Assembly: GCF_000016745.1 (NCBI RefSeq) | Contig: NC_009483.1 | Coordinates: 180,001 to 212,000 of the forward strand | Direction of reading: 5' to 3' | Source: Geotalea uraniireducens Rf4 | GTDB lineage: Bacteria > Desulfobacterota > Desulfuromonadia > Geobacterales > Geobacteraceae | DNA: 32,000 nucleotides | Shown: positions 11,092 through 28,787 of the stretch, one piece after another | Layout: the number at the start of each line of letters is the position of its first letter | Numbering within the stretch: the first letter of the stretch is position 1 | Position numbers and translations under genes: made by a program | The notes under the pieces: model-generated | Databases searched by the model: none | Told to the model about the DNA's origin: nothing | The model's input: the letters and a program-made list of their open reading frames with translations, nothing else

Positions 11092-11232
11092 TTATCTCTT
11101 CTCGTCCTTCCCCAGCCGGGCTTTAGTGTTAATGACGTTTTCCAGAGGTACAACCTTATCAGTTACCCGTTCTCCACCCGGATTAATCTTCTTTTCGGCC
11201 TTATCGACTTTTTCTTTAAAATTATTCAGCAT
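11092..11232 (-). CDS. Hypothetical small Lys/Glu-rich protein (46 aa), or a 3' remnant of a gene cut by the IS
   Basis: MLNNFKEKVDKAEKK... begins at the ATG at 11232. The longer ORF-track version (to 11340) runs into the IS left end and is not credible. No SD is present. Confidence 0.3.
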   Translation of the reverse strand: MLNNFKEKVDKAEKKINPGGERVTDKVVPLENVINTKARLGKDEKR

Positions 11233-11287
11233 TGTCCGGTTTGGTCTTTGCAAGGTTCTTTGAGAATGTAAAAAAGTTGTAAAATCA

Positions 11288-12729
11288 GCGTTATACCGCA
11301 TTATTTGCTTGACTTTGAGTAAAAAAACGGTGGTCCGCACTCGTAACTATCCAATATTACAGGAGTTACGATATGCGACCGTTCAAACGACTGAAACAAA
11401 GACGAAAATCACGCGCTTTCAAATTGCTTCTTACCCCGATTTTTGAGAGATTCAAGTCAGATAATGAACTTGAATCCAGGGGGTATCGCCCGTTGCAAAT
11501 GACTTTCGATGATCAGCTAAAAGCCCTGATCTTTTATCACTTGGAAGAGTTCTCTTCCGGGAGCGAACTTCTCCAGGCGCTGGATCAGGATGACTTCGCC
11601 AAGGAATGTGTTGCTCCCCCCAAGGGAATCAAAAAGAGCTCTTTCTTTGAGGCAATCAACAACCGTGGTCTTGAACAGCTTTCCGAGGTATTCGGGCATC
11701 TTGTCAAGCAAGCAGGCAGAGTGCTTCCCGATGAATATGCTCACCTTGGCAATCTGGTATCCATAGACGGTTCTTTGATAGATGCTGTTCTATCTATGGA
11801 ATGGGCAGATTACCGAAGCGGCTCTAAGAAGGCCAAGGCCCATATCGGCTTCGATATCAACCGTGGTATTCCAAGGAAGATATTCCTGACCGACGGTAAA
11901 GAGGGTGAGCGCCCCTTTGTTGATAAGATCATCGACAAAGGCGAAACCGGTGTCATGGATCGTGGGTATCAGTCTCATAATCACTTTGACCAGTGGCAGG
12001 CCGCCGAGAAGTTTTTTGTCTGCCGTATCAGGGAGAATACACACAAAACCGTCATCAGAGAGAATGCCGTAAATCCTGACAGTATTGTCTTCTATGACCA
12101 GATAGTACTTCTCGGCACCAAAGGTATAAACCAGACTGAGAAAGAGCTGCGCCTTGTTGGTTACCGTATTGACGGCAAGGACTACTGGGTAGCAACCAAC
12201 AGATACGACCTGACGGCTGAAGAAGTGGCCCAGGTTTATAAACTGCGCTGGAACATAGAGACCTTCTTCGGTTGGTGGAAACGCCACCTAAAGGTGTATC
12301 ACCTGATTGCCAGAAGCGAATATGGTCTCATGGTTCAAATACTTGGTGGTCTCATCACCTATCTGCTGCTAGCCATCTATTGCCGTGAGCAGCACCAGGA
12401 GCCAGTCAGCATTAGCAGGGTACGAGAATTACGCAATCAGATTGCAAATGAAGCAGCAGCCGAACAGCAGAGCCGTCGCACAAGAATACAAGGTAACTCA
12501 AACAAAATTAGACAGTTGAAACGTAAGAAACGTCGTGCAAAAACCTAACCGGAAGTTACTGAAAATTATTACGAAAGACCGGTTGCCATTGCGAAAGCCC
12601 GGCCTCGGAATAAGGAAAGGACAAAAACCGCGTTAGAAGCGTTGCCGGCGTTGTCGGAAGCAAAACGGAAAACGTGAGAAGCGTGCAGGCTGATGATCGA
12701 AAGCGGATTGCATAATGGTGGATTAACGC
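11288..12729 (+). mobile_element. IS4-family insertion sequence (about 1.44 kb); ends approximate
   Basis: A single DDE transposase is flanked by imperfect terminal inverted repeats. The left repeat is GCGTTATACCGCATTATTTGC (11288-11308). The right repeat is GCATAATGGTGGATTAACGC (12710-12729), whose reverse complement is GCGTTAATCCACCATTATGC. About 17 positions match, with small indels. I could not identify a clean target-site duplication. Confidence 0.6.
11373..12548 (+). CDS. IS4-family DDE transposase
   Basis: D (SIDGS), D (VMDRGY) and the Y-x2-R-x3-E-x6-K signature (YKLRWNIETFFGWWK). CAGGAG lies 7 nt upstream of the ATG. Confidence 0.9.
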   Translation: MRPFKRLKQRRKSRAFKLLLTPIFERFKSDNELESRGYRPLQMTFDDQLKALIFYHLEEFSSGSELLQALDQDDFAKECVAPPKGIKKSSFFEAINNRGLEQLSEVFGHLVKQAGRVLPDEYAHLGNLVSIDGSLIDAVLSMEWADYRSGSKKAKAHIGFDINRGIPRKIFLTDGKEGERPFVDKIIDKGETGVMDRGYQSHNHFDQWQAAEKFFVCRIRENTHKTVIRENAVNPDSIVFYDQIVLLGTKGINQTEKELRLVGYRIDGKDYWVATNRYDLTAEEVAQVYKLRWNIETFFGWWKRHLKVYHLIARSEYGLMVQILGGLITYLLLAIYCREQHQEPVSISRVRELRNQIANEAAAEQQSRRTRIQGNSNKIRQLKRKKRRAKT

Positions 12730-20895: not shown

Positions 20896-20915
20896 TTGAT
20901 GCTATGATCGAAGCC

Positions 20916-21758
20916 TTAGAACTCCTGCGGCATAGCCTTCACCTGCTTGGCGGTGAAGACCGGCCCGTCCTTGCAGACATAGGTATTCCCCACGTTGCAT
21001 CTGCCGCATTTGCCCAGGCCGCATTTCATCCTGTTCTCCAGGGTGGTGTAGATGGCGTCATCGGTAAAGCCGAGCCGCTCCAGGACCGGCAGGGTGAACT
21101 TGATCATCACCGGCGGTCCGCAGACAAGGGCGATGGTGTTTTGCGCGCTTGGCGTCGCCTCTTCCAGGATGGTGGGGACAAAGCCGACCTTGCCGTCCCA
21201 GTCGGGACCGTTCCCCCCCGGATCCACCGTCTTCACCAGGTTCACGTCCCCCCGCTCCTGCCACTCCTCAAGCTCCCGCTTGTAGACCAGATCCGCCTCC
21301 GTCCTGGCACCGTAGACGATGGTGATATCCTTGAACCTGTCCCTCAGGTCGAGGCAGTTCCAGATCACCGTTCGCAGCGGGGGGAGGGCGATGCCGCCGG
21401 CGACGAAGACGAGGCTTTTCCCCTCGAACTCCTCGATGGGGAACGAGTTGCCGTAAGGGCCGCGCACCCCCATCGTGTCTCCCACCTCCAGTTGCCGCAG
21501 CGACTCCGTGACCCGTCCCGTGGCCCTGAAACAGCACTCGATGTAACCCTTGCGGGTCGGCGAGGAAGCGATGCAGAAGGTGGATTCGCCGGCGCCGAAG
21601 GCCGAGTACTCGGCAAACTGGCCGGCGCGGAAGGAGAAGTTCTCCCGCACCTGCTCATCCTGGAAGACCAGGCGCAGCGTACGCACGTCCGGGGTTTCGT
21701 CGACGATTTCTTCGATGGTGGCGAGGTGGGGGAGGTAGATGTTTTTGTTATCGCACAT
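20916..21758 (-). CDS. flxA: FAD/NAD(P)H-binding [2Fe-2S] oxidoreductase subunit (FlxA; AsrB/HydG-gamma-like)
   Basis: Ferredoxin-reductase-type fold (RAGQF, GPYG, VFVAGGIALPP) and a C-terminal Cys cluster CGLGKCGRCNV...C. It is the last gene of the hdr-flx operon. Confidence 0.75.
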   Translation of the reverse strand: MCDNKNIYLPHLATIEEIVDETPDVRTLRLVFQDEQVRENFSFRAGQFAEYSAFGAGESTFCIASSPTRKGYIECCFRATGRVTESLRQLEVGDTMGVRGPYGNSFPIEEFEGKSLVFVAGGIALPPLRTVIWNCLDLRDRFKDITIVYGARTEADLVYKRELEEWQERGDVNLVKTVDPGGNGPDWDGKVGFVPTILEEATPSAQNTIALVCGPPVMIKFTLPVLERLGFTDDAIYTTLENRMKCGLGKCGRCNVGNTYVCKDGPVFTAKQVKAMPQEF

Positions 21759-21768
21759 TTTGGAACCC

Positions 21769-21834
21769 GTTCGATGTTCGATGTTCGATGTTCAAGGTTT
21801 TCTTACGTCGAACCTCGAACGTCGAACGTCGAAC
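21769..21834. repeat. Tandem-heptad hairpin, flxB/flxA gap
   Basis: GTTCGAT x3 plus GTTCAAG (21769-21796), a 10-nt loop, then GTCGAAC, CTCGAAC and GTCGAAC x2 (21807-21834). The 6-bp blocks are separated by single mismatches. Confidence 0.9.
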
Positions 21835-21838
21835 CGCT

Positions 21839-22843
21839 TTATTTGCTGTTGATTTCGTCCAATACCGCCTTGATATCGATCCCGACCGGACAGGCACGAA
21901 TGCACCTGCCGCAGCCGGTGCAGAGCGTCTGGCCGAACTTGTCGCCGTAATACTTGAACTTGTGCATGATCCTGTTTCTGTAACGCTTGTTCTGCATATC
22001 CCGCGGGTTGTGCCCCGAGGCGTGGTTGGTGAACTTGGCAAAGCCGCAGGCGTCCCAGCTCTTCCGCCTGGCCCCCTTGGCCTCGGTCCCCTCGTCCACT
22101 ATGTCGAAGCAGTGGCAGGCCGGGCAGAGGAAGGCGCAGGCGCCGCAACCGGCGCACCGATCGGCGATCTCCGTCCAGAGCGGGTTCTCGAAGTTGTTGT
22201 CGAGCCAGCTCTTTATCTTTTCCAGGTCGAGCGATTCTCCCGCCGGTTCGGCCGGCGGCAGCGGCTTTGCCGAACCGGCGTCGCTGAAGAACTGCGCCCG
22301 TTTCTCCAGAAGCTCCTTCCCCTTGTCGGTGACGGCTTGGGCTGCGTAACCGCCACCCTCAAGCGGGGTGAGGAACAGGTCCGAGCCCCTGGTATCCGCC
22401 GGGGAAAGACCGACAGCGGTGCAGAAACAGGCGTCATCGGCAGTCGTGCAGGCAAGCCCGATAATGGTCGTTTTTCTGCGCCTCTCCAGGTAAAACTCGT
22501 CGTTGTAATCCCAGGAGAAGACCGCATCGAGGATCGACGGAGCTGCCGCATCGCACGGCCGGGCGCAGAGCAGCACGGTTTCCGGGAAGGAGGCCGGGTC
22601 CACGTCGTTTACCCTCACACCGCCCTTGTCCTTTTCAAAGGTGAGGATGGTCTCGCAGAGGGGGAAGAACGTTTCCTTGGCGGACCTGCGCGGAAGGGCG
22701 CCGAGCGCCAGCTCGTCGCCACTTTTAAGCGGCTCATAGAGGGCCATGGTGCCCGCCTGCTTCGGGGCGACTACTCTTGCCCCTTCTTTCAGCAGGGTAT
22801 CGACGAGGAGACGGAGGTTCTGTTCGGTTATTGTTTTCGGCAT
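21839..22843 (-). CDS. flxB: Iron-sulfur subunit (FlxB; AsrA/HydB-beta-like)
   Basis: Cys clusters CAGCGACAFLCPACHC and CTGCGRCIRACP. The ATG at 22843 (MPKTITEQ) is preferred, because the ORF-track GTG at 22876 lies inside a hairpin arm. Confidence 0.7.
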   Translation of the reverse strand: MPKTITEQNLRLLVDTLLKEGARVVAPKQAGTMALYEPLKSGDELALGALPRRSAKETFFPLCETILTFEKDKGGVRVNDVDPASFPETVLLCARPCDAAAPSILDAVFSWDYNDEFYLERRRKTTIIGLACTTADDACFCTAVGLSPADTRGSDLFLTPLEGGGYAAQAVTDKGKELLEKRAQFFSDAGSAKPLPPAEPAGESLDLEKIKSWLDNNFENPLWTEIADRCAGCGACAFLCPACHCFDIVDEGTEAKGARRKSWDACGFAKFTNHASGHNPRDMQNKRYRNRIMHKFKYYGDKFGQTLCTGCGRCIRACPVGIDIKAVLDEINSK

Positions 22844-22864
22844 ATGATCTCGCTTAGATTTTTG

Positions 22865-23001
22865 CCACAGAGCCACGGAGACTCAGAGAAAAATCAAAAA
22901 CATGTTTTCGGTTTTGTTTGATCCGACTTGATCCGATTTTTCCGCGTACCATTGTTTTTCAGCTTTTCTCTGTGAATCTCTGTGTCTCCGTGCCTCTGTG
23001 G
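22865..23001. repeat. Tandem-octamer inverted repeat with a ~70-nt spacer, flxC/flxB gap
   Basis: The left arm is CCACAGAG-CCACGGAG-ACTCAGAG-AAAAA (22865-22893). The right arm is TTTTCTCTGTGAATCTCTGTGTCTCCGTGCCTCTGTGG (22964-23001). About 24 of 26 positions are complementary, and the right arm has one extra unit. The spacer holds a tandem 10-mer TTGATCCGAY x2 (22918-22937). Confidence 0.9.
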
Positions 23002-23012
23002 CAGAATTGCTG

Positions 23013-23960
23013 TTATTTTATGAACGACTGATCGTCGTCCTCTCTGTACTCCGCCAAAGGCCCCTTCTCCTTCGGCTCAAGCCCCGCCTCATGACCGTAG
23101 AGCTCTTTCAGCTCCTTTGCCATCTTCCGGTTGAGGAGGTTCAGCGGAATGTCCATCGGGCAGGCTCGCTCGCATTCGGCGCACCCCGCGCAACGGCCGG
23201 AGAGGTGCATGGCCCGGACGATGTGCCACGCCATGTTTCCCGCCGGACGCGGGCTTGTCTCAACCGCCTGGGGGCGGTTACGGTCGCACATGCACTGTTC
23301 GCAGTAGCAGAAGGGGCAGATGCTCCGGCAGGCCAGACAGCGCACGCAGCGGGAGAAATGTTCCTTCCAGAACGACCAGCGCTCCCGGGGTGTCATCGCT
23401 TCGAGCCGTGCCAGCTCCTCAGCTTCCACCGGGGACAATTCCGGCAGGGAGGGGAGACTGCCGGCGACAGAATCGGCTCCTTTCGGCTCGCGTACCGTGC
23501 ACTCCCGGCATTTCTTCGCGATGTTGGCGGTGGTCAGCGGCTCGCCGGTTGCGGCGCCGCTCCCCTTCACCCCGGCGCAGGCAACGGCGATGATGTGGAC
23601 GTCCTCCCGCTTCAGCTGGGATTCACCCATCAGTCCCGCCAGGGCACGCATATCGCACCCCTTGGCGACGATCGCCACCTTTCCCGTCTTCCGGATATCC
23701 TTCTTCGCCTTGGTCAGGTAGAGGGCCAGGTTGTTGACGCAGGCCGGGGAGAAGATCAGGTCATTCGCCCGGGCAGGGTCGGTGATGATGGCAGGCATGG
23801 CCGTGCCTTTCCTCTTGCCCGCCTGGTAGCCGATCACCGCGGCTACGGTACCGTCGGTCAGGAGCCTGGCGGCCTCCGCCCGGATCGCCTCGGTAACGGC
23901 AGCGTAGTAGCCGGTGTCCACCAGCGGGGTTGTGTCGAGTTGTTGTGCTGTGTTGGTCAT
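23013..23960 (-). CDS. flxC: Iron-sulfur subunit (FlxC-like)
   Basis: Cys-rich motifs CVRCLACRSICPFCYCEQCMC and CAGCAECERACP. AGGAAA lies upstream of the ATG. The gene sits between flxD and flxB. Confidence 0.65.
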   Translation of the reverse strand: MTNTAQQLDTTPLVDTGYYAAVTEAIRAEAARLLTDGTVAAVIGYQAGKRKGTAMPAIITDPARANDLIFSPACVNNLALYLTKAKKDIRKTGKVAIVAKGCDMRALAGLMGESQLKREDVHIIAVACAGVKGSGAATGEPLTTANIAKKCRECTVREPKGADSVAGSLPSLPELSPVEAEELARLEAMTPRERWSFWKEHFSRCVRCLACRSICPFCYCEQCMCDRNRPQAVETSPRPAGNMAWHIVRAMHLSGRCAGCAECERACPMDIPLNLLNRKMAKELKELYGHEAGLEPKEKGPLAEYREDDDQSFIK

Positions 23961-23978
23961 GATTTCCTAAACCGTTCT

Positions 23979-24067
23979 CACCACTAAGGCACTAAGGACA
24001 CGAAGAAAACCAAAAAAACGGGTTTTAGACTTTAGTCTTTCTTTGTGCTCTTAGTGTCTTAGTGGTG
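23979..24067. repeat. Tandem-octamer hairpin, flxD/flxC gap
   Basis: CACCACTAAGGCACTAAGGACACGAAGAAA (23979-24008) faces TTTCTTTGTGCTCTTAGTGTCTTAGTGGTG (24038-24067). 26 of 30 positions are complementary, and all four mismatches are transitions. The arms contain CACTAAGG x2. Confidence 0.9.
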
Positions 24068-24077
24068 AATGTAGTCG

Positions 24078-24563
24078 TTAAATGTTGTTGTACGCTTCTT
24101 TAAGCTCCGGGGTATCAATCTTCCCCGACCAGCACTCCTCAATCTCCAGCTCCTTGAATTCAAGCATCGGCCCCATGGCCCGGACACGCTCGGTGAGCTC
24201 GGTCACCACCTCGACCCACTTCCCCCCTTCGGCTGCGGAGACCCAGGAGAACTGGAGGCGCGAGAGATCTACGCCGACGAATTCCAGGAGCTTCCTGAAG
24301 GCGGCGAAACGACGGCGGGCGTGGAAGTTGCCGGCCATGTAGTGGCAGTCCCCCGGATGGCAGCCGGAGACGAGCACCCCGTCGGCCCCTTTCTGGAAGG
24401 CCTTGAGGATGAAGACCGGATCGATGCGGCCGGTGCAGGGGAACTTGACGACCCTCACGTTTGAAGGGTACTGCATTCGGCTGGTGCCGGCCAGGTCCGC
24501 ACCGGCGTAGGTGCACCAGGTGCAGACGAAGGCTACTATCTTTGGTTCGAAGTCGTGTTTCAT
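24078..24563 (-). CDS. flxD: MvhD-like [2Fe-2S] protein (FlxD)
   Basis: FVCTWCTYAGADLAG...KFPCTGRIDP...SGCHPGDCHY is the signature of the methyl-viologen-reducing hydrogenase delta subunit family. AGGA lies 5 nt upstream. Confidence 0.85.
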   Translation of the reverse strand: MKHDFEPKIVAFVCTWCTYAGADLAGTSRMQYPSNVRVVKFPCTGRIDPVFILKAFQKGADGVLVSGCHPGDCHYMAGNFHARRRFAAFRKLLEFVGVDLSRLQFSWVSAAEGGKWVEVVTELTERVRAMGPMLEFKELEIEECWSGKIDTPELKEAYNNI

Positions 24564-24572
24564 AACAATCCT

Positions 24573-24692
24573 GTTCGAGGTTCGAGGTTCGAGGTTCGAG
24601 GTTCGAGGTTCGAGGTTCGAGGTTCGAGGTTCGAGGTTCGAGGTTCGAGGTTCGGTTCTTGTTTTTCAACATCGAACCTCGAACCTCGAACC
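24573..24692. repeat. (GTTCGAG)x11 microsatellite facing (TCGAACC)x3, hdrA/flxD gap
   Basis: Eleven perfect heptads (24573-24649), a 22-nt spacer, then three perfect complementary heptads (24672-24692). Confidence 0.95.
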
Positions 24693-24696
24693 GGTT

Positions 24697-26694
24697 TTAT
24701 AACGCTTCTATCATCGCCACGATCTGTTCATCGGTATAGCCGTCCAGCTCCACCGATTTGGACGGGCAGGTGGCCTGGCAGGTGCCGCAGCCGCCGCAGA
24801 CGCCGGGGTTGACGTAGGCCACGACTCTTATCAGGTTGCCGTTTCTGTCCCTGATCTCCTTTTCCTCTACCGCGCCGTAGGGGCAGACCTTCTTGCAGTA
24901 GAAGCAGGCGACGCAATTTTTCTCGTTCACCTTGGCGACGATCGGCTCTCTTTCGAGCTCGTCCCTGGAGAAGAGGGTCATCACCTTGGCTGCGGCGGCA
25001 CTCGCCTGGGAGACGGTGTCGGGGATATCTTTCGGCCCCTGGCAGGCGCCGGCGAGATAAATTCCGGCTGTGGCGCATTCAACGGGGCGGAGTTTGGCGT
25101 GGGCCTCGGAGTAGAAGTTGTACTTGTCGTAGGAGATCCCCAGCTTCTGGGCCAGGGTGTCGGCGCCTTGCCTTGGCTGGACCGCGGTGGCCAGGACTAC
25201 CAGATCCGCCTCGATCTCCACCTGGACCCCGACCGAGATGTCGCTCCCCATGACCACGACCTTGTCCCCCTTCTGGTAGAGGCGGGAGACCATGCCGCGG
25301 ATGTAGCCCGCTTCTTCTTCCTCCACGGCCCGCCGCCAGAACTCGTCGTATCCCTTGCCCGGTGTTCTCGCGTCCATGAAGAAGACATAGGCCTGGCCGT
25401 CGTGCACCTTGTGCTTGTAGAGCATGGTGTGCTTGGCGGTGTACATGCAGCAGATCTTGGAGCAGTAGGAGATCCCCTTTTCCCTGGCGCGGGAGCCGAC
25501 GCATTGGATGAAGACCACCTGTTTCGGTTCCTTGCCGTCTGAGGGGCGGAGGATCTTGCCGCCGGTGGGGCCGGATGCCGAGGCGAGCCGCTCGAAGGTC
25601 ATGCCGTCGATGACGTCGGGGATCTTGCCGTGGCCGAATTCGCCATACCCCTTGATCGGGGAGCCCTTGGGCTTTTCGGTGATGTCGTAGAGCTCGAAGC
25701 CGGTGGCGACGACGATGGCCCCGACCTTTTCCACGATGAGTTCATCTTCCTGGGTGTAGTCAACGGCTCCGGGGCCGCAGACCTTCTGGCAGACCCCGCA
25801 CTTGCCGGTCTTGAACCAGGTGCAGTTCTCCCGGTCGATGACCGGGGTGTTGGGGACGGCCTGGGGGAAGGGGACGTAGATGGCGGGGCGCATTCCCATA
25901 TTCCGGTCAAAGGCGTTGGGGATCTTCTTCTGCGGGCACTTGGCCATGCAGATCCCGCAGCCGGTGCACTTGGCCATGTCGACGCTGCGGGCCTTCTTCT
26001 TGATGGTGATCTGGAAGTTGCCGATGTAGCCGTCGACGTTCTCGATCTCGCTGTAGGTATGAAGGGTGATGTTCGGGTGGTTGGCCACGTCGACCATCTT
26101 CGGGGTCATGATGCACTGGGAGCAGTCCAGGGTCGGGAAGGTCTCGGAGAGCTGGGCCATGTGGCCGCCGATGGAGGGCTCCCGCTCGACCAGCACCACC
26201 TGGTGGCCGGCGTCGGCGATGTCCAGGGCTGCCTGGATGCCGGCGATGCCGCCGCCGATGACGAGCGACCTTTTGGTGATCGGGACGGTGATGGGTGCAA
26301 GTTTCTTGTCCTTCTTCACCCGCTCGACCAGCATGGCGACGATCTCGCTCGCCTTGGCCGTGGCTTCTTCCCGGTCCTCGTGGACCCAGGAGCAGTGCTC
26401 GCGGATGTTGGCCATCTCGCACAAAAAGGGGTTCAGACCCGCGCTCTGGGCAGCTTTCCTGAAGGTCTTCTCGTGCATCCGCGGGGAGCAGGCGGCAACG
26501 ACGATGCCGTCGAGATTGTGCTCGGCAACGGCCTTTTTGAGCAGGTTTTGCCCCGGGTCGGAGCACATGTACTTGTAGTCGGTGGCAAAAGCGACGCCGG
26601 AGAGCGCTCCCGCTTCCCGGGCTACCCGTTCCACGTCAACGGTTCTGGATATGTTTTCACCACAGTGGCAGACGAATACGCCGATTCTGGACAT
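24697..26694 (-). CDS. hdrA: Heterodisulfide reductase subunit A (flavoprotein, multiple [4Fe-4S])
   Basis: N-terminal VFVCHCGENI cluster, FAD fold VIGGGIAGIQAALDIADAG, and ferredoxin motifs CTGCGICMAKCP, CGVCQKVCGP, CVACFYCKKVCP and CGGCGTCQATCP. AGGAA lies upstream. Confidence 0.92.
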   Translation of the reverse strand: MSRIGVFVCHCGENISRTVDVERVAREAGALSGVAFATDYKYMCSDPGQNLLKKAVAEHNLDGIVVAACSPRMHEKTFRKAAQSAGLNPFLCEMANIREHCSWVHEDREEATAKASEIVAMLVERVKKDKKLAPITVPITKRSLVIGGGIAGIQAALDIADAGHQVVLVEREPSIGGHMAQLSETFPTLDCSQCIMTPKMVDVANHPNITLHTYSEIENVDGYIGNFQITIKKKARSVDMAKCTGCGICMAKCPQKKIPNAFDRNMGMRPAIYVPFPQAVPNTPVIDRENCTWFKTGKCGVCQKVCGPGAVDYTQEDELIVEKVGAIVVATGFELYDITEKPKGSPIKGYGEFGHGKIPDVIDGMTFERLASASGPTGGKILRPSDGKEPKQVVFIQCVGSRAREKGISYCSKICCMYTAKHTMLYKHKVHDGQAYVFFMDARTPGKGYDEFWRRAVEEEEAGYIRGMVSRLYQKGDKVVVMGSDISVGVQVEIEADLVVLATAVQPRQGADTLAQKLGISYDKYNFYSEAHAKLRPVECATAGIYLAGACQGPKDIPDTVSQASAAAAKVMTLFSRDELEREPIVAKVNEKNCVACFYCKKVCPYGAVEEKEIRDRNGNLIRVVAYVNPGVCGGCGTCQATCPSKSVELDGYTDEQIVAMIEAL

Positions 26695-26707
26695 GCATCA
26701 ATTCCTT

Positions 26708-26848
26708 GTAGGGGCGGGGTCTTCCCGCCCTTATTTATCGTTGTTCCGGCAGGGCGGGGGTCCGTCCTTTTTTCGCATTGTTCCGGCAGGGCGGGGGTCC
26801 GTCCTTTTTTCGCATTGTTCCAACAGGGCGGGGAAACCCCGCCCCTAC
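26708..26848. repeat. 37-bp direct repeat x2.5 bracketed by a 12-nt GC-rich inverted repeat, hdrB/hdrA gap
   Basis: GTAGGGGCGGGG (26708-26719) is complementary to CCCCGCCCCTAC (26837-26848), which overlaps the hdrB stop. TTGTTCCGGCAGGGCGGGGGTCCGTCCTTTTTTCGCA occurs identically at 26741-26777 and 26778-26814, followed by a partial copy at 26815-26833. Local GC hairpins sit at both ends. Confidence 0.95.
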
Positions 26849-27732
26849 AGTAGGTTCTTTTCTTTTAATAACGGCAAGGGACTGACCATCATGCTGTCGA
26901 AGCCGAGTTTGGCTGCTGGAACCCCGGCGGCCAGGGCCAGGAGCTGGGTCATGTAGAAGACCGGCATGTTGTAACGGGTGCCGGTGGCCTCTTCGATCTC
27001 CTTCTGGCGGATGTCCAGGTTGCCGTGGCAAAGCGGACAGGCGACCATGAGGCAGTCGGCGCCGGCCGCTTTGGCCGAGGCGAGGATGTCGCCCGAAAGC
27101 TTCAATACCACGCCGGGGCGCGACAGGGTGAAGTTGGCGCCGCAGCACTCGAGCCGGTGGCTCCAGGCGACGGTCTCGGCTCCGGTGGCGCCGATGACCC
27201 GCTCCATGATGGTCGGGGCTTCGGTGCAGTCCAGTTCCGGCACTTCTGGGGGCCGGGTGAGGAGGCAGCCGTAGTAGCAGGCTACCTTGAGGCCGGAGAG
27301 GGGCTTTTGCACCGCTTCCTGGAGTTGCTCCAGGCCGTAGTCTTTGGCCAGGATCTCCAGCAGGTGCTTGACCTTCTTCTCCGGTACGCTGCCGGCAATG
27401 GCGTGCTCCACCTGCTTGCGCTTCTCCGGGTTGTCGGCCAGTCTGTGCTGGGTGGTCTTGAGTCTGGAGAAGCAGGCGGCGCAGGCGACTGCCAGGTCCC
27501 CCTTGACTTCGTCGGCCAGGGAGAGGTTCTTGGCGCACAGGGAGAGCGACAACAGTTCGTCCACGTTGTGGGCCGGGGTGGCGCCGCAGCAGAGCCAGTC
27601 CGGCACTTCCTTGAGACCGATCTTCAGCGCCTTGAACAGACCGCGGGTGGATATGTCGTACTCCTTGCCCGAGGCGTGCAGTGAGCAGCCGGGATAGTAG
27701 GAGTAGGTGAGTTTTGAGTTTGTAGAGTTCAT
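26845..27732 (-). CDS. hdrB: Heterodisulfide reductase subunit B (two CCG domains)
   Basis: YYPGCSLH, DWLCCGATPAH and RLECCGANF motifs. The ATG at 27732 (MNSTNSKLTYSYYPGC) is preferred over 27846, which would add a 38-aa NS(I/K) repeat. No SD is visible for either start. Confidence 0.85.
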   Translation of the reverse strand: MNSTNSKLTYSYYPGCSLHASGKEYDISTRGLFKALKIGLKEVPDWLCCGATPAHNVDELLSLSLCAKNLSLADEVKGDLAVACAACFSRLKTTQHRLADNPEKRKQVEHAIAGSVPEKKVKHLLEILAKDYGLEQLQEAVQKPLSGLKVACYYGCLLTRPPEVPELDCTEAPTIMERVIGATGAETVAWSHRLECCGANFTLSRPGVVLKLSGDILASAKAAGADCLMVACPLCHGNLDIRQKEIEEATGTRYNMPVFYMTQLLALAAGVPAAKLGFDSMMVSPLPLLKEKNLL

Positions 27733-27873
27733 AGAGTTCTTTGAGTTCTTTGAGTTTATTGAGTTCTTTGAGTTTATTGAGTTTATTGAGTTCTTTGAGT
27801 TTATTGAGTTTATTGAGTTTATTGAGTTACATGGGTTCAACACCATAACTCATCGAACTCATAAAACTCATAA
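27709..27873. repeat. 9-bp microsatellite (GAGTTYWTT) x13 facing three inverted 9-mers, hdrC/hdrB junction
   Basis: Thirteen 9-mers span 27716-27832: GAGTTTATT x6, GAGTTCTTT x4 and three variants. A 7-nt partial unit sits at 27709. AACTCATCG and AACTCATAA x2 lie at 27847-27873. Confidence 0.95.
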
Positions 27874-28446
27874 AACGGTTTTCCGCATCTCTTCGATCCG
27901 GTTGAAGATATTTTCAATCTCGGTGATGTTCTTGTTTTTGGAGTGGAACATTTTAAGCTTCCCCCGGGAGAGGAGCTTGGGGCCGAGCAGCAGGTCCTTC
28001 AGGAACTGCCCGCTCTTGACGTTGAACACGGCGCCGAGCCGCATCTCGTACTGGCGGCCGTAGGTTTTTATGTTCTCGATGAAGAGCCGGTTGGCGAGCT
28101 GGACATAGCTCTCCTTGGAGGGGCCGTTGGCGTCCCAGGAGAGTTTGCGCAGCGCATCCATGATCGCTGCCAGGTCCACCTTGTTGGGGCAGCGGGTGGA
28201 GCAGGTCTCGCACGAGGCGCAGTACCAGATGGATCGACCGGCCAGAATCCGCTCCCACTGGCCGAGCTGCAACAGGCGCATGATCCGGTTGGGCGGGTGT
28301 TCCATGAAGCTTCGCATGGGGCAGCCGGCCGTGCACTTGCCGCACTGGAAACAGCGCCGTACCGAACTGCCGGAGAGGGACTCCACCTTGCGAACGAAGT
28401 CGAGGTTCATCGTTTCGGTGGAGAGTGTCATCTTGGTGTGCTTCAT
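27868..28446 (-). CDS. hdrC: Heterodisulfide reductase subunit C (2x[4Fe-4S])
   Basis: CFQCGKCTAGCP and CASCETCSTRCP. AAGGA lies 7 nt upstream of the ATG. Confidence 0.88.
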   Translation of the reverse strand: MKHTKMTLSTETMNLDFVRKVESLSGSSVRRCFQCGKCTAGCPMRSFMEHPPNRIMRLLQLGQWERILAGRSIWYCASCETCSTRCPNKVDLAAIMDALRKLSWDANGPSKESYVQLANRLFIENIKTYGRQYEMRLGAVFNVKSGQFLKDLLLGPKLLSRGKLKMFHSKNKNITEIENIFNRIEEMRKTVL

Positions 28447-28787
28447 TGAAATTCCTTTCCCTCTTCATTGACGGGATGACAAAAAGCCCATGACGATAGC
28501 GACTGCTGATGAAAAGGAGAGGGCTTTTTATTTACACTAAATTATTGCTGTGATATTGCCTGATATATAAGAGTAATTAATCTACGCTTTTAATAATACT
28601 AAAAATTGATAACATATGACGACATATTTTGTCAACATATACGTTTAATGGCGGCATCCGCACAGCGCGTCAGTTGAAGCATACCGGGTCAGGGCCGCCA
28701 CTAAAAACAGCGGCGGATTTTGCCTGCTCCCTCTCGGATTGACGGCTCAATATGCCCTATATCTCATAAAGTGGCGCCGTTTCAGCC

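Follow-up and report, generated by a model that had tools for sequence, protein, structure and literature searches.

A perfect heptad array between hdrA and flxD of Geotalea uraniireducens is probably the slippage-expanded arm of a dispersed REP-like palindrome

Why do eleven perfect copies of a heptanucleotide lie between hdrA and flxD in Geotalea uraniireducens Rf4, directly before the Shine-Dalgarno sequence of flxD? The array lies in the window, which is the whole 32,000-nt stretch of the genome that we analyzed (NC_009483.1, positions 180,001 to 212,000), and it faces a shorter array of the complementary unit, just past the stop codon of hdrA. The original prediction, which was made from the letters of the window, offered two answers: a slipped-strand hypervariable site, or a register-shifting RNA structure that tunes flxD translation. 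We propose that one copy of a dispersed family of REP-like, tandem-heptad palindromes lies in this gap, that the array is probably its 3' arm, expanded by slippage, and that the family would act as punctuation at the level of RNA. The two parts of this proposal differ in strength. We are quite sure that the array is the unstable, expanded arm of a family element; the REP-like role in RNA is a tentative suggestion, and we would put somewhat less than even weight on it.

Positions without a prefix are those of the window, readings of the minus strand are in the sense of the mRNA, and C1 is the whole-genome contig (5,136,364 bp in one contig, 54.2% G+C). The gap between hdrA and flxD is 133 nt long, and it contains 3.6 units opposite 11.7 units. 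Read on the minus strand, the exact repeats are (GGTTCGA)x3 at 24692-24672 and (CTCGAAC)x11 at 24649-24573. Tandem Repeats Finder (TRF) reports the longer array, whose unit is GTTCGAG on the forward strand, at 24573-24654 (period 7, 11.7 copies, 100% matches, score 164), and it reports 3.6 copies of the complementary unit at 24668-24692. The first GTTC unit of the 5' arm begins 5 nt past the hdrA stop. The perfect 11-copy array with a complementary 5' arm is thus as originally described. The gene names given at the time also hold, as the downstream protein belongs to PF02662 and the upstream protein has the FAD/NAD-binding and 4Fe-4S domains of HdrA.

The unit numbers at the array are as assembled in the reference genome. 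An independent short-read assembly (the Logan contig of SRR29904084) has an identical flxD start and breaks within the array after 3.9 units. This contig carries the array, so the array exists outside the RefSeq assembly, with a length that is not readable there. Two exact-pattern scans of metagenome contigs gave no matches to the junction of the array and flxD. That heptad arrays break short-read assemblies is relevant to metagenome-assembled genomes (MAGs) of Geobacteraceae.

The genome contains a natural experiment on the stability of the array. The operon hdrCBA-flxDCBA is present in two copies (Table 1), which are in opposite orientation and about 4 Mb apart; outside the repeats, their identity is 99.8%. 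The duplication includes neither the LUD/CCG gene upstream nor the flank downstream. Between the copies, we counted 13 substitutions (0.18%) over the roughly 7.2 kb that are not repeats, a few swaps of unit variants within a 9-mer array, and three indels of 28 nt, 63 nt, and 45 nt, every one of which consists of whole repeat units. The 28-nt indel is four heptads at the hdrA-flxD array, which has 11.7 units in the window and 7.7 in the paralogue, and the other two are both in the 9-mer arms of the hdrC-hdrB gap. The paralogous operons therefore gauge, within one genome, how unstable long arms are: 0.18% divergence against 4 heptads and 5 + 7 nine-mers.

A second, independent duplicated segment behaves in the same way. 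Its copies (C1:1766981-1767102 and C1:2965927-2966069; 99.97% identity over 3.1 kb) contain a GTTCGAC/TTCGAAC hairpin whose arms have 3 vs. 4 and 11 vs. 13 units. Short arms are the same between copies: this includes the flxB-flxA hairpin (4 and 4 units) and the hairpins in the rRNA spacers (4/4 and 3/4). Since near-identical paralogues differ (11.7 vs. 7.7 and 11 vs. 13 units), long arrays must shift fast, and by whole units. Judging from these comparisons, the long perfect arms behave as length-dependent microsatellites that shift by whole units very fast, presumably by slippage. A recent expansion at a slipped-strand hypervariable site was one of the two original answers, and it fits both the paralogues and the orthologues, which have 2-5 units per arm.

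The two copies of the operon also bear on whether the array is translated. An ATG in the loop region (24672-24670) opens a spurious frame through the heptads, which would be read as (TSNLEPR)n. In the 7-unit paralogue (C1:4202988 region), this ATG shares the frame of flxD and would add 27 residues; in the 11-unit copy in the window, the two frames differ. It is buried in the stem, and its position is not conserved among orthologues. Because the frame relation to flxD is unlike between the paralogues, and because the gene finder gives the frame zero support, we rejected the array as coding sequence, in agreement with the original view that it is non-coding. Nor did a scan of the gap find a promoter-like or terminator-like site. 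An intrinsic (Rho-independent) terminator can be rejected as well: the stem continues into more heptads and then AGGAUUGUU, instead of a GC-rich stem with a U-tract. No curated RNA family matches at 24573-24692 (Rfam 15, gathering score); there were only sub-threshold chance matches to microRNA models, and these were at the neighboring 8-mer hairpin.

The heptad element was at first treated as special to the hdrA-flxD gap, and it turns out to belong to a family that is spread across the genome and the lineage. The genome contains 242 arrays with a period of 7, of which 209 are outside gene calls, and the most common unit is AACCTCG, the unit of the hdrA-flxD array (32 arrays). Fifty of the heptamer arrays have an inverted partner within 120 nt, vs. 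0 with a reversed-unit control. With a strict hairpin pattern (at least two GTT[CA]NAN units, up to 70 nt, and at least two NTN[GT]AAC units), we found 38 loci with a very uniform layout: (GTTCNAN)n, a GTT-loop-AAC, and (NTNGAAC)m. The usual loop is GTT-(G/T)AAA-AAC, and the GTTGAAAAC-type loop of the window is found again in other copies of the family. Most arms have 3-5 units. The outliers, with 6-15 units on either arm, are runs of one perfect unit.

The family has a strong preference for certain gaps. Of the heptamer arrays, 188 are in co-directional, 17 in convergent, and 4 in divergent gaps, vs. 143, 24, and 42 expected from the shares of intergenic bases (chi-square 50.7, p = 1e-11), and the gene calls on both sides are co-directional for 37 of the 38 GTTCNAN hairpins. 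These 37 include four in the spacers of both rRNA operons, just before a tRNA (C1:1304430, 1307840, 3813336, and 3816737; one directly precedes the tRNA gene). This suggests that the family is tolerated in highly expressed non-coding transcripts, and it suggests a role in processing.

Within the gaps, the hairpins are anchored to the upstream stop codon. Among the 33 GTTCNAN hairpins between protein genes, the first GTTC unit begins 3-8 nt past the upstream stop in 24, with a mode of 5 nt. The next start codon is anywhere from 7 to 520 nt away, and in 32 of the 33 it is farther off than the stop (p = 8e-9). If hairpins of all unit classes are considered, 36 of 96 with tandem arms start 3-6 nt past a stop, vs. 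9 of 260 other hairpins (Fisher p = 1.5e-15). TAA, TGA, and TAG all precede hairpins and the intervening 4-6 nt are variable, so the stop codon does not itself belong to the element. Two hairpins (C1:272140-272160 and 1015585-1015605) are apparently 17-18 nt past the stop. At both loci, 12-14 nt that include the stop are tandemly duplicated (GCAATAAGGACC x2 and CAATAGAG..CAATAGAG), which puts a second stop-like triplet at the usual 4-5 nt from the hairpin.

The helicase at the mRNA entry site of the ribosome is about 11 nt from the first base of the P site. By this general geometry, a helix that begins about 5 nt past a stop codon would just be reached, and would not necessarily be melted, by a terminating ribosome, which makes the offset look like a transcript-linked or translation-linked regularity. 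REP elements within 15 nt of a stop codon reportedly stall ribosomes (a finding attributed to Liang, Rudd and Deutscher in 2015).

The same site is occupied in relatives. At least five other genera have a hairpin of the same architecture between hdrA and flxD, with 2-5 units per arm and with coding flanks that are only 75-80% identical. All but one of these orthologous hairpins begin 4-6 nt past the stop, the Shine-Dalgarno sequence follows directly after the last GAAC, and the junction GAAC|(A/G)GGA is common to them. Among these gaps, the 11-unit arm in the window is an outlier. In other genera, the site holds other palindromes with repeat arms, with units such as GATCGGAC, CACAGAGA/TCTCTGTG, CGCGGAT, or ATTCTGA, and still other gaps contain non-tandem palindromes or a small ORF. 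By eye, we estimate that about 55-60 of 88 distinct orthologous gaps contain palindromes with tandem arms (two automatic classifiers, which were too strict, gave 0 and 21 of 88). Across the order, 51 of 201 genomes have the heptad pattern, with 0 to over 100 matches per genome, and the control pattern has 0 everywhere.

Gaps at this site can also grow in other ways. In two genomes from the same genus (L019, which is Geotalea toluenoxydans, and G004:C1:4144384-4146110), the hdrA-flxD gap is enlarged to 500-770 nt by tandem duplication of a block that includes the last codons of hdrA (about 150 nt in L019 to about 300 nt in G004). The duplicated block of L019 also holds a CACTAAG/CACGAAG hairpin. 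And in a MAG from the Geobacteraceae (L088), a different class of unit shows another one-sided expansion at this junction, with (GGSCGGATCT)x~9 in the 5' arm vs. about 4 units in the 3' arm.

What might such an element do? The RNA of the hdrA-flxD gap has a predicted folding energy of -57.1 kcal/mol, vs. -31.3 ± 3.4 for dinucleotide shuffles (z = -7.6; 0 of 200 shuffles were as good). If it is transcribed within the hdrCBA-flxDCBA mRNA, as we suppose, then it would fold into a 23-bp hairpin whose base lies at the entry of a ribosome that is terminating on hdrA. This hairpin could serve as REP-like structural punctuation, either by shielding the upstream cistron from 3' exonucleases or by offering a site to a double-strand RNase, and it might keep termination on hdrA apart from initiation on flxD. 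The eight extra CUCGAAC units would be an unselected microsatellite expansion that adds only about 56 nt of unpaired, C-rich spacer before the Shine-Dalgarno sequence. Above about five units, no effect on flxD initiation is predicted.

A bolder version of this idea is that the tandem-heptad palindromes make up a "stop-codon punctuation" system of the Geobacteraceae, which would be gauged by the ribosome: the base of the hairpin, about 5 nt past the stop, would be touched but not necessarily melted, and a lineage-specific trans-acting factor would read the GTTC.A. heptad. Such a system would set termination or re-initiation, or the stability of segments of mRNA, at dozens of operon junctions. 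We think this is a long shot. If it is true, then the drift of unit numbers in long arms would be its evolutionary noise or, in a few cases, its raw material.

The factor in that proposal is meant to explain a feature of the units. Position 5 of the unit follows genome-specific "dialects": the counts of GTTCGAN, GTTCTAN, and GTTCAAN are 119, 64, and 4 in this genome (G000), 22, 0, and 115 in G008, 10, 93, and 1 in G018, 2, 171, and 13 in G025, and 39, 1, and 12 in G058. The hdrA-flxD hairpin matches the dialect of its own genome. At first sight, the orthologous hairpins show compensatory covariation at position 5 (G:C, A:T, or T:A). Because the hairpins follow the dialects of their genomes, this covariation reflects homogenization across the family. 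It is not evidence for a selected RNA helix at this locus, and we rejected it as such. Homogenization across the family, as in REP elements, points to a trans-acting recognition factor, to dispersal, or to conversion.

Several points weigh against our proposal. We infer that the gap is transcribed, and likewise processing and any effect on stability. In eight related genomes, the hdrA stop and the flxD start overlap and leave no gap, so the hairpin is dispensable for the operon. The gene coordinates are from our own crude gene finder, which uses codon usage. Also, the sense strand does not fold better than the antisense strand (it is the more stable one in 39 orthologous gaps vs. 41, out of 80, and in 15 vs. 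18 of the 33 hairpins in this genome), and G.T and A.C mismatches are equally frequent (19 vs. 17). Equal folds and equal mismatches give no sign that the coding-strand RNA is under selection; these strand tests (folding energy and mismatch type) speak neither for nor against an RNA role. Across 35 distinct hairpins in this genome, positions 5 and 7 of the unit pair no better than in arm-shuffled controls (48% vs. 40 ± 5% and 19% vs. 25%). Conservation thus extends to the GTTC.A. motif and to its phasing but not to a perfect helix, which fits recognition by a protein at least as well.

This brings us to the idea that the arms are phased, inverted GTTCNAN sites for a protein that binds duplex DNA, such as a nucleoid protein or "global regulator" of the IHF/HU type, with each extra unit adding a site. 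Aklujkar et al. proposed this for the paired tandem-repeat sites of G. metallireducens (PMC2700814). That the motif rather than the pairing is conserved, and that there is no G.U bias on the coding strand, are as expected for DNA sites, and the dialects of different genomes suggest co-evolution with a trans-acting recognition factor. Three heptads are also 21 bp, or what would be two turns of B-DNA. But a period of 7 bp sets successive sites on different faces of the helix, and the elements avoid divergent promoter regions, which are the usual territory of regulators. Also, the offset of 3-6 nt from the stop, and the orientation towards the end of the upstream gene in both strand contexts, have no obvious rationale at the level of DNA. 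And we know of no binding protein for the heptad sites. Overall, we consider it unlikely that the arms are such binding sites.

Equally improbable, in our view, is that the elements are selfish or mobile palindromic repeats, like REP/REPIN or MITE elements, which would be spread and homogenized by a trans-acting enzyme and tolerated downstream of genes, with no role in hdr-flx. This would account for the dialects and for the patchy presence of the family across the order (51 of 201 genomes), as well as for the different repeat families that occupy the same hdrA-flxD gap across genera and the empty site in some genomes. The genome also has 14 matches to Y1_Tnp (PF01797), including about nine single-copy, RAYT-like ORFs of about 320 amino acids. 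However, the RAYT-like genes are flanked by GGGGTCAG-type repeats instead of heptads. Beyond the segmental duplications, the heptad elements have no near-identical dispersed copies, and they have no conserved flanks; we noticed no target-site duplications in their flanks. The element is kept at the orthologous site across genera with coding flanks of only 75-80% identity, and tolerance alone does not explain the sharp offset of 3-6 nt from the stop.

The RAYT-like ORFs with the Y1_Tnp domain are at C1:1123558, 946162, 3503811, 4574790, 3498846, 4260317, 1880891, and 1004124. At least the one at C1:1123558 is flanked by inverted tandem repeats of the GGGGTCAG/CTGACCCC motif. This suggests that there are further REP-type families with tandem structure.

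Could the number of units matter for flxD? Originally, about nine pairing registers were counted, the last of them at the flxD Shine-Dalgarno, and this count is accurate: within the array, the 21-nt 5' arm can pair perfectly over 21 bp at eight sites, and a ninth site, of 20 bp, abuts AGGA. But in the partition function, the two loop-proximal registers make up 81% of the ensemble, and the distal registers that are listed have at most 6% each; the 7.7-unit paralogue is alike. According to the fold model, the first three units pair with the 5' arm, and about eight units (56 nt) remain as C-rich, mostly unpaired spacer (the unpaired probability per heptad is 0.08-0.18 for units 1-3 and 0.41-0.45 for units 5-11). 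We also modeled access to the Shine-Dalgarno sequence in variants with 2-15 units. Between 3 and 15 units, AGGA is unpaired with a mean probability of 0.64-0.71, and the modeled cost of opening the wider ribosome-binding region is 22 kcal/mol with 3 units, 8 with 5, and flat thereafter. For flxD initiation, the model predicts no difference between the two real alleles (7 and 11 units). At other loci, expansions are found on either arm, and some of these loci are 80-520 nt from the next start codon. The suggestion of a register-shifting structure that tunes flxD is not supported, on these three points: the registers are dominated by the loop-proximal ones, access is flat from 5 units, and expansions occur elsewhere, far from starts.

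More generally, a riboregulator or contingency switch that depends on copy number would shift the register, or otherwise alter the expression of flxD relative to hdrA, as the number of units changes. In one variant, the unpaired, C-rich (CUCGAAC)n tract of at least 56 nt could be a loading site for Rho, which would make flxDCBA polar; the tract is 43% C and 14% G. In another, the ATG in the loop would yield an N-terminally extended FlxD when the number of units sets the frame, and it is in frame at 7 units and out of frame at 11. The unit number does differ between the operon copies, nine registers do exist, and the modeled opening energy, which is 22 kcal/mol with 3 units, does drop to 8 with 5. 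Yet, distal registers are rare (none listed is above 6%), there is no modeled difference between the 7- and 11-unit alleles, the gap has no promoter-like site, and elsewhere either arm expands, also far from start codons. As for the loop ATG, it lies within the stem, has poor Shine-Dalgarno spacing, was born of unit variants, and has a shifted position in orthologues, while flxD has its own conserved Shine-Dalgarno and ATG. We find this the least plausible of the alternatives, and very unlikely.

The hdrA-flxD element is not the only repeat in its operon. On the minus strand, the order of genes by Pfam is LUD/CCG protein, hdrC, hdrB, hdrA, flxD, flxC, flxB, and flxA, and at least five of the intercistronic gaps hold a palindrome with tandem-repeat arms, made of 9-mers, 37-mers, heptads, 8-mers, and heptads (Table 1). 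In the hdrC-hdrB gap, the longer array, (AACTCAATA/AACTCAAAG)x12.8, is in frame with hdrB, whose likely ATG (27732) comes from it. From an ATG farther upstream, at 27846, this array would be translated as an N-terminal (NSI/NSK)n extension of hdrB. The paralogue has 5 more units in the array that is in frame with hdrB and 7 more in the opposing arm, and both changes are multiples of 3 nt. The hdrB-hdrA gap (26741-26833) contains 2.5 copies of a 37-mer between GC-rich palindromes, GTAGGGGCGGGG...CCCCGCCCCTAC. These palindromes resemble canonical REP elements by their GTAG tag, and similar units are in tandem elsewhere (for instance, at C1:1450692 and 3158338). Elsewhere in the window, at 11222-12573, there is an insertion sequence with a 391-aa transposase ORF, and the genome has at least 10 copies of it with 99.7-100% identity.

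Table 1. The hdrA-flxD element, its flanking genes, and other repeat elements of the operon. The arms of the hdrA-flxD hairpin are given in the mRNA sense.
Feature	Position in window	Strand	Basis or remarks
Duplicated segment hdrCBA-flxDCBA, 7.5 kb	20915..28449	-	Second copy at C1:4199099-4206713; BLAST and MAFFT
hdrA, 665 aa	24697..26694	-	Stop TAA at 24699-24697; ORF list; Pfam FAD/NAD-binding and 4Fe-4S domains
Hairpin 5' arm: AACC, (GGTTCGA)x3, TG	24668..24696	-	Sequence, TRF, and paired in the minimum free energy structure
Loop region, 22 nt, UGUUGAAAAACAAGAACCGAAC	24650..24671	-	Holds the conserved GTT...AAC inner mini-stem of the family
Hairpin 3' arm, (CTCGAAC)x11.7, perfect	24573..24654	-	TRF
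flxD Shine-Dalgarno, AGGA	24569..24572	-	Directly after the last heptad; followed by TTGTT and ATG
flxD, MvhD/FlpD family, 161 aa	24078..24563	-	ATG at 24563-24561; Pfam PF02662, E = 4.6e-54
Sister element in flxB-flxA gap: (GTTCGAC/G)x4, loop, (NTCGAAC)x4	21769..21835	-	Identical in both operon copies
Hairpin in flxD-flxC gap with octamer arms, CACTAAGA / CCTTAGTG	23982..24064	-	
9-mer arrays in hdrC-hdrB gap: (TTTATGAGT)x3.3 opposite (AACTCAATA)x12.8	27714..27876	-	Paralogous copy has +63 nt and +45 nt

How does the element compare to known systems? Like simple-sequence contingency loci, it has a perfect array of short units, and whole units are gained or lost within a very short evolutionary time; the variation was seen between two paralogous copies within one genome. 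Unlike those loci, in which a repeat within an ORF or in the promoter spacing switches expression, the array is non-coding, outside any ORF and any -35/-10 spacing, and no promoter-like site is nearby in the gap. flxD keeps its own Shine-Dalgarno and ATG, the modeled access is independent of unit number from 5 units, and no on/off effect is predicted.

The STRR heptamers of cyanobacteria and the TAACTGA repeats of Beggiatoaceae are likewise abundant intergenic tandem heptamers of unknown function, with tens of copies in some genomes. The TAACTGA direct repeats lie a few nucleotides upstream of starts and were proposed to be sites for a post-transcriptional regulator (MacGregor 2015, PMC4679880). 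In contrast to the family described here, STRR and TAACTGA repeats are nearly always direct repeats with no inverted partner (there is one indirect repeat in 170 sets), and they are anchored to starts rather than to stops. They are also from unrelated phyla, and their unit sequences are unrelated.

Other analogues are the REP, BIME, and REPIN elements of enterobacteria and pseudomonads. These are abundant extragenic palindromes with a species-specific consensus, which are transcribed as hairpins; they lie between co-directional or convergent genes, just past stops and within operons, and their reported roles include stabilization of mRNA and binding of IHF (PMC2817692, PMC3116915, PMC3733652). 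The heptad family has a similar position: it is extragenic and close to stops, enriched between co-directional genes, and depleted from divergent gaps. Its structure is different. A REP is defined as a single imperfect palindrome of 20-40 bp with a GTAG or CGTC tag (PMC3733652), whereas the arms of the heptad family are tandem heptads of variable number, and the hdrA-flxD copy contains neither GTAG nor CGTC. Also, REPs flank their own RAYT gene, whereas the RAYT-like genes of this genome are flanked by other repeats: no heptad array is within 600 nt of any of the 14 matches to PF01797.

The nearest relatives by structure are in the Geobacteraceae themselves. Short tandem and palindromic repeats are present in 12% of the intergenic regions of Geobacter bemidjiensis, among them multicopy direct repeats of 6-42 nt, with no known function (Aklujkar et al. 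2010, PMC2996986). This is a similar catalogue from a related species, although its repeats are listed in supplementary tables only, and the main text gives no architecture, position rule, or dynamics. For G. metallireducens, Aklujkar et al. (2009, PMC2700814) described paired tandem-repeat "predicted global regulator binding sites" of classes 1-3 and the heptanucleotide elements Gmet_H4. These are intergenic pairs on opposite strands, each with 3-5 tandem octa- or heptanucleotides and with a variable spacer, and one of them lies between the co-transcribed proBA genes. According to the 2009 paper, G. sulfurreducens does not have repeat elements comparable to those of G. metallireducens. This is the same bacterial family and the same paired tandem architecture. 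The hdrA-flxD element has opposed arms of 3.6 and 11.7 units in an intergenic gap, its genome has 38 such hairpins, and the pattern recurs in relatives. Some of the units that fill the hdrA-flxD gap of other Geobacteraceae match the consensus of class 2 (TCTCCGTS[Y]) or class 3 (MTYCTGA) of G. metallireducens. GTTCGAG/CTCGAAC matches none of the published consensus sequences (GTTGCTYN, TCTCCGTS[Y], MTYCTGA, CCYTC, and GGACCGG), and the GTTCNAN/NTNGAAC class is absent from the four published classes. It is a further class with the same architecture.

As a single locus, then, the hdrA-flxD element is ordinary: it is an expanded copy of a class of repeats that was listed in the Geobacter genome papers of 2009 and 2010. 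In the 2009 paper, we did not find reports of the position relative to stop codons, the instability of copy number, or the dialects of units in different genomes. The mechanism that was proposed there, binding of IHF or HU, is not favored by the positional data. Three regularities (the location 3-6 nt past stops, the near-absence from promoter gaps, and the dialects at position 5) argue instead for a role that is linked to the transcript or to translation, with a trans-acting determinant, and they open an abundant and uncharacterized class of non-coding DNA to experiment.

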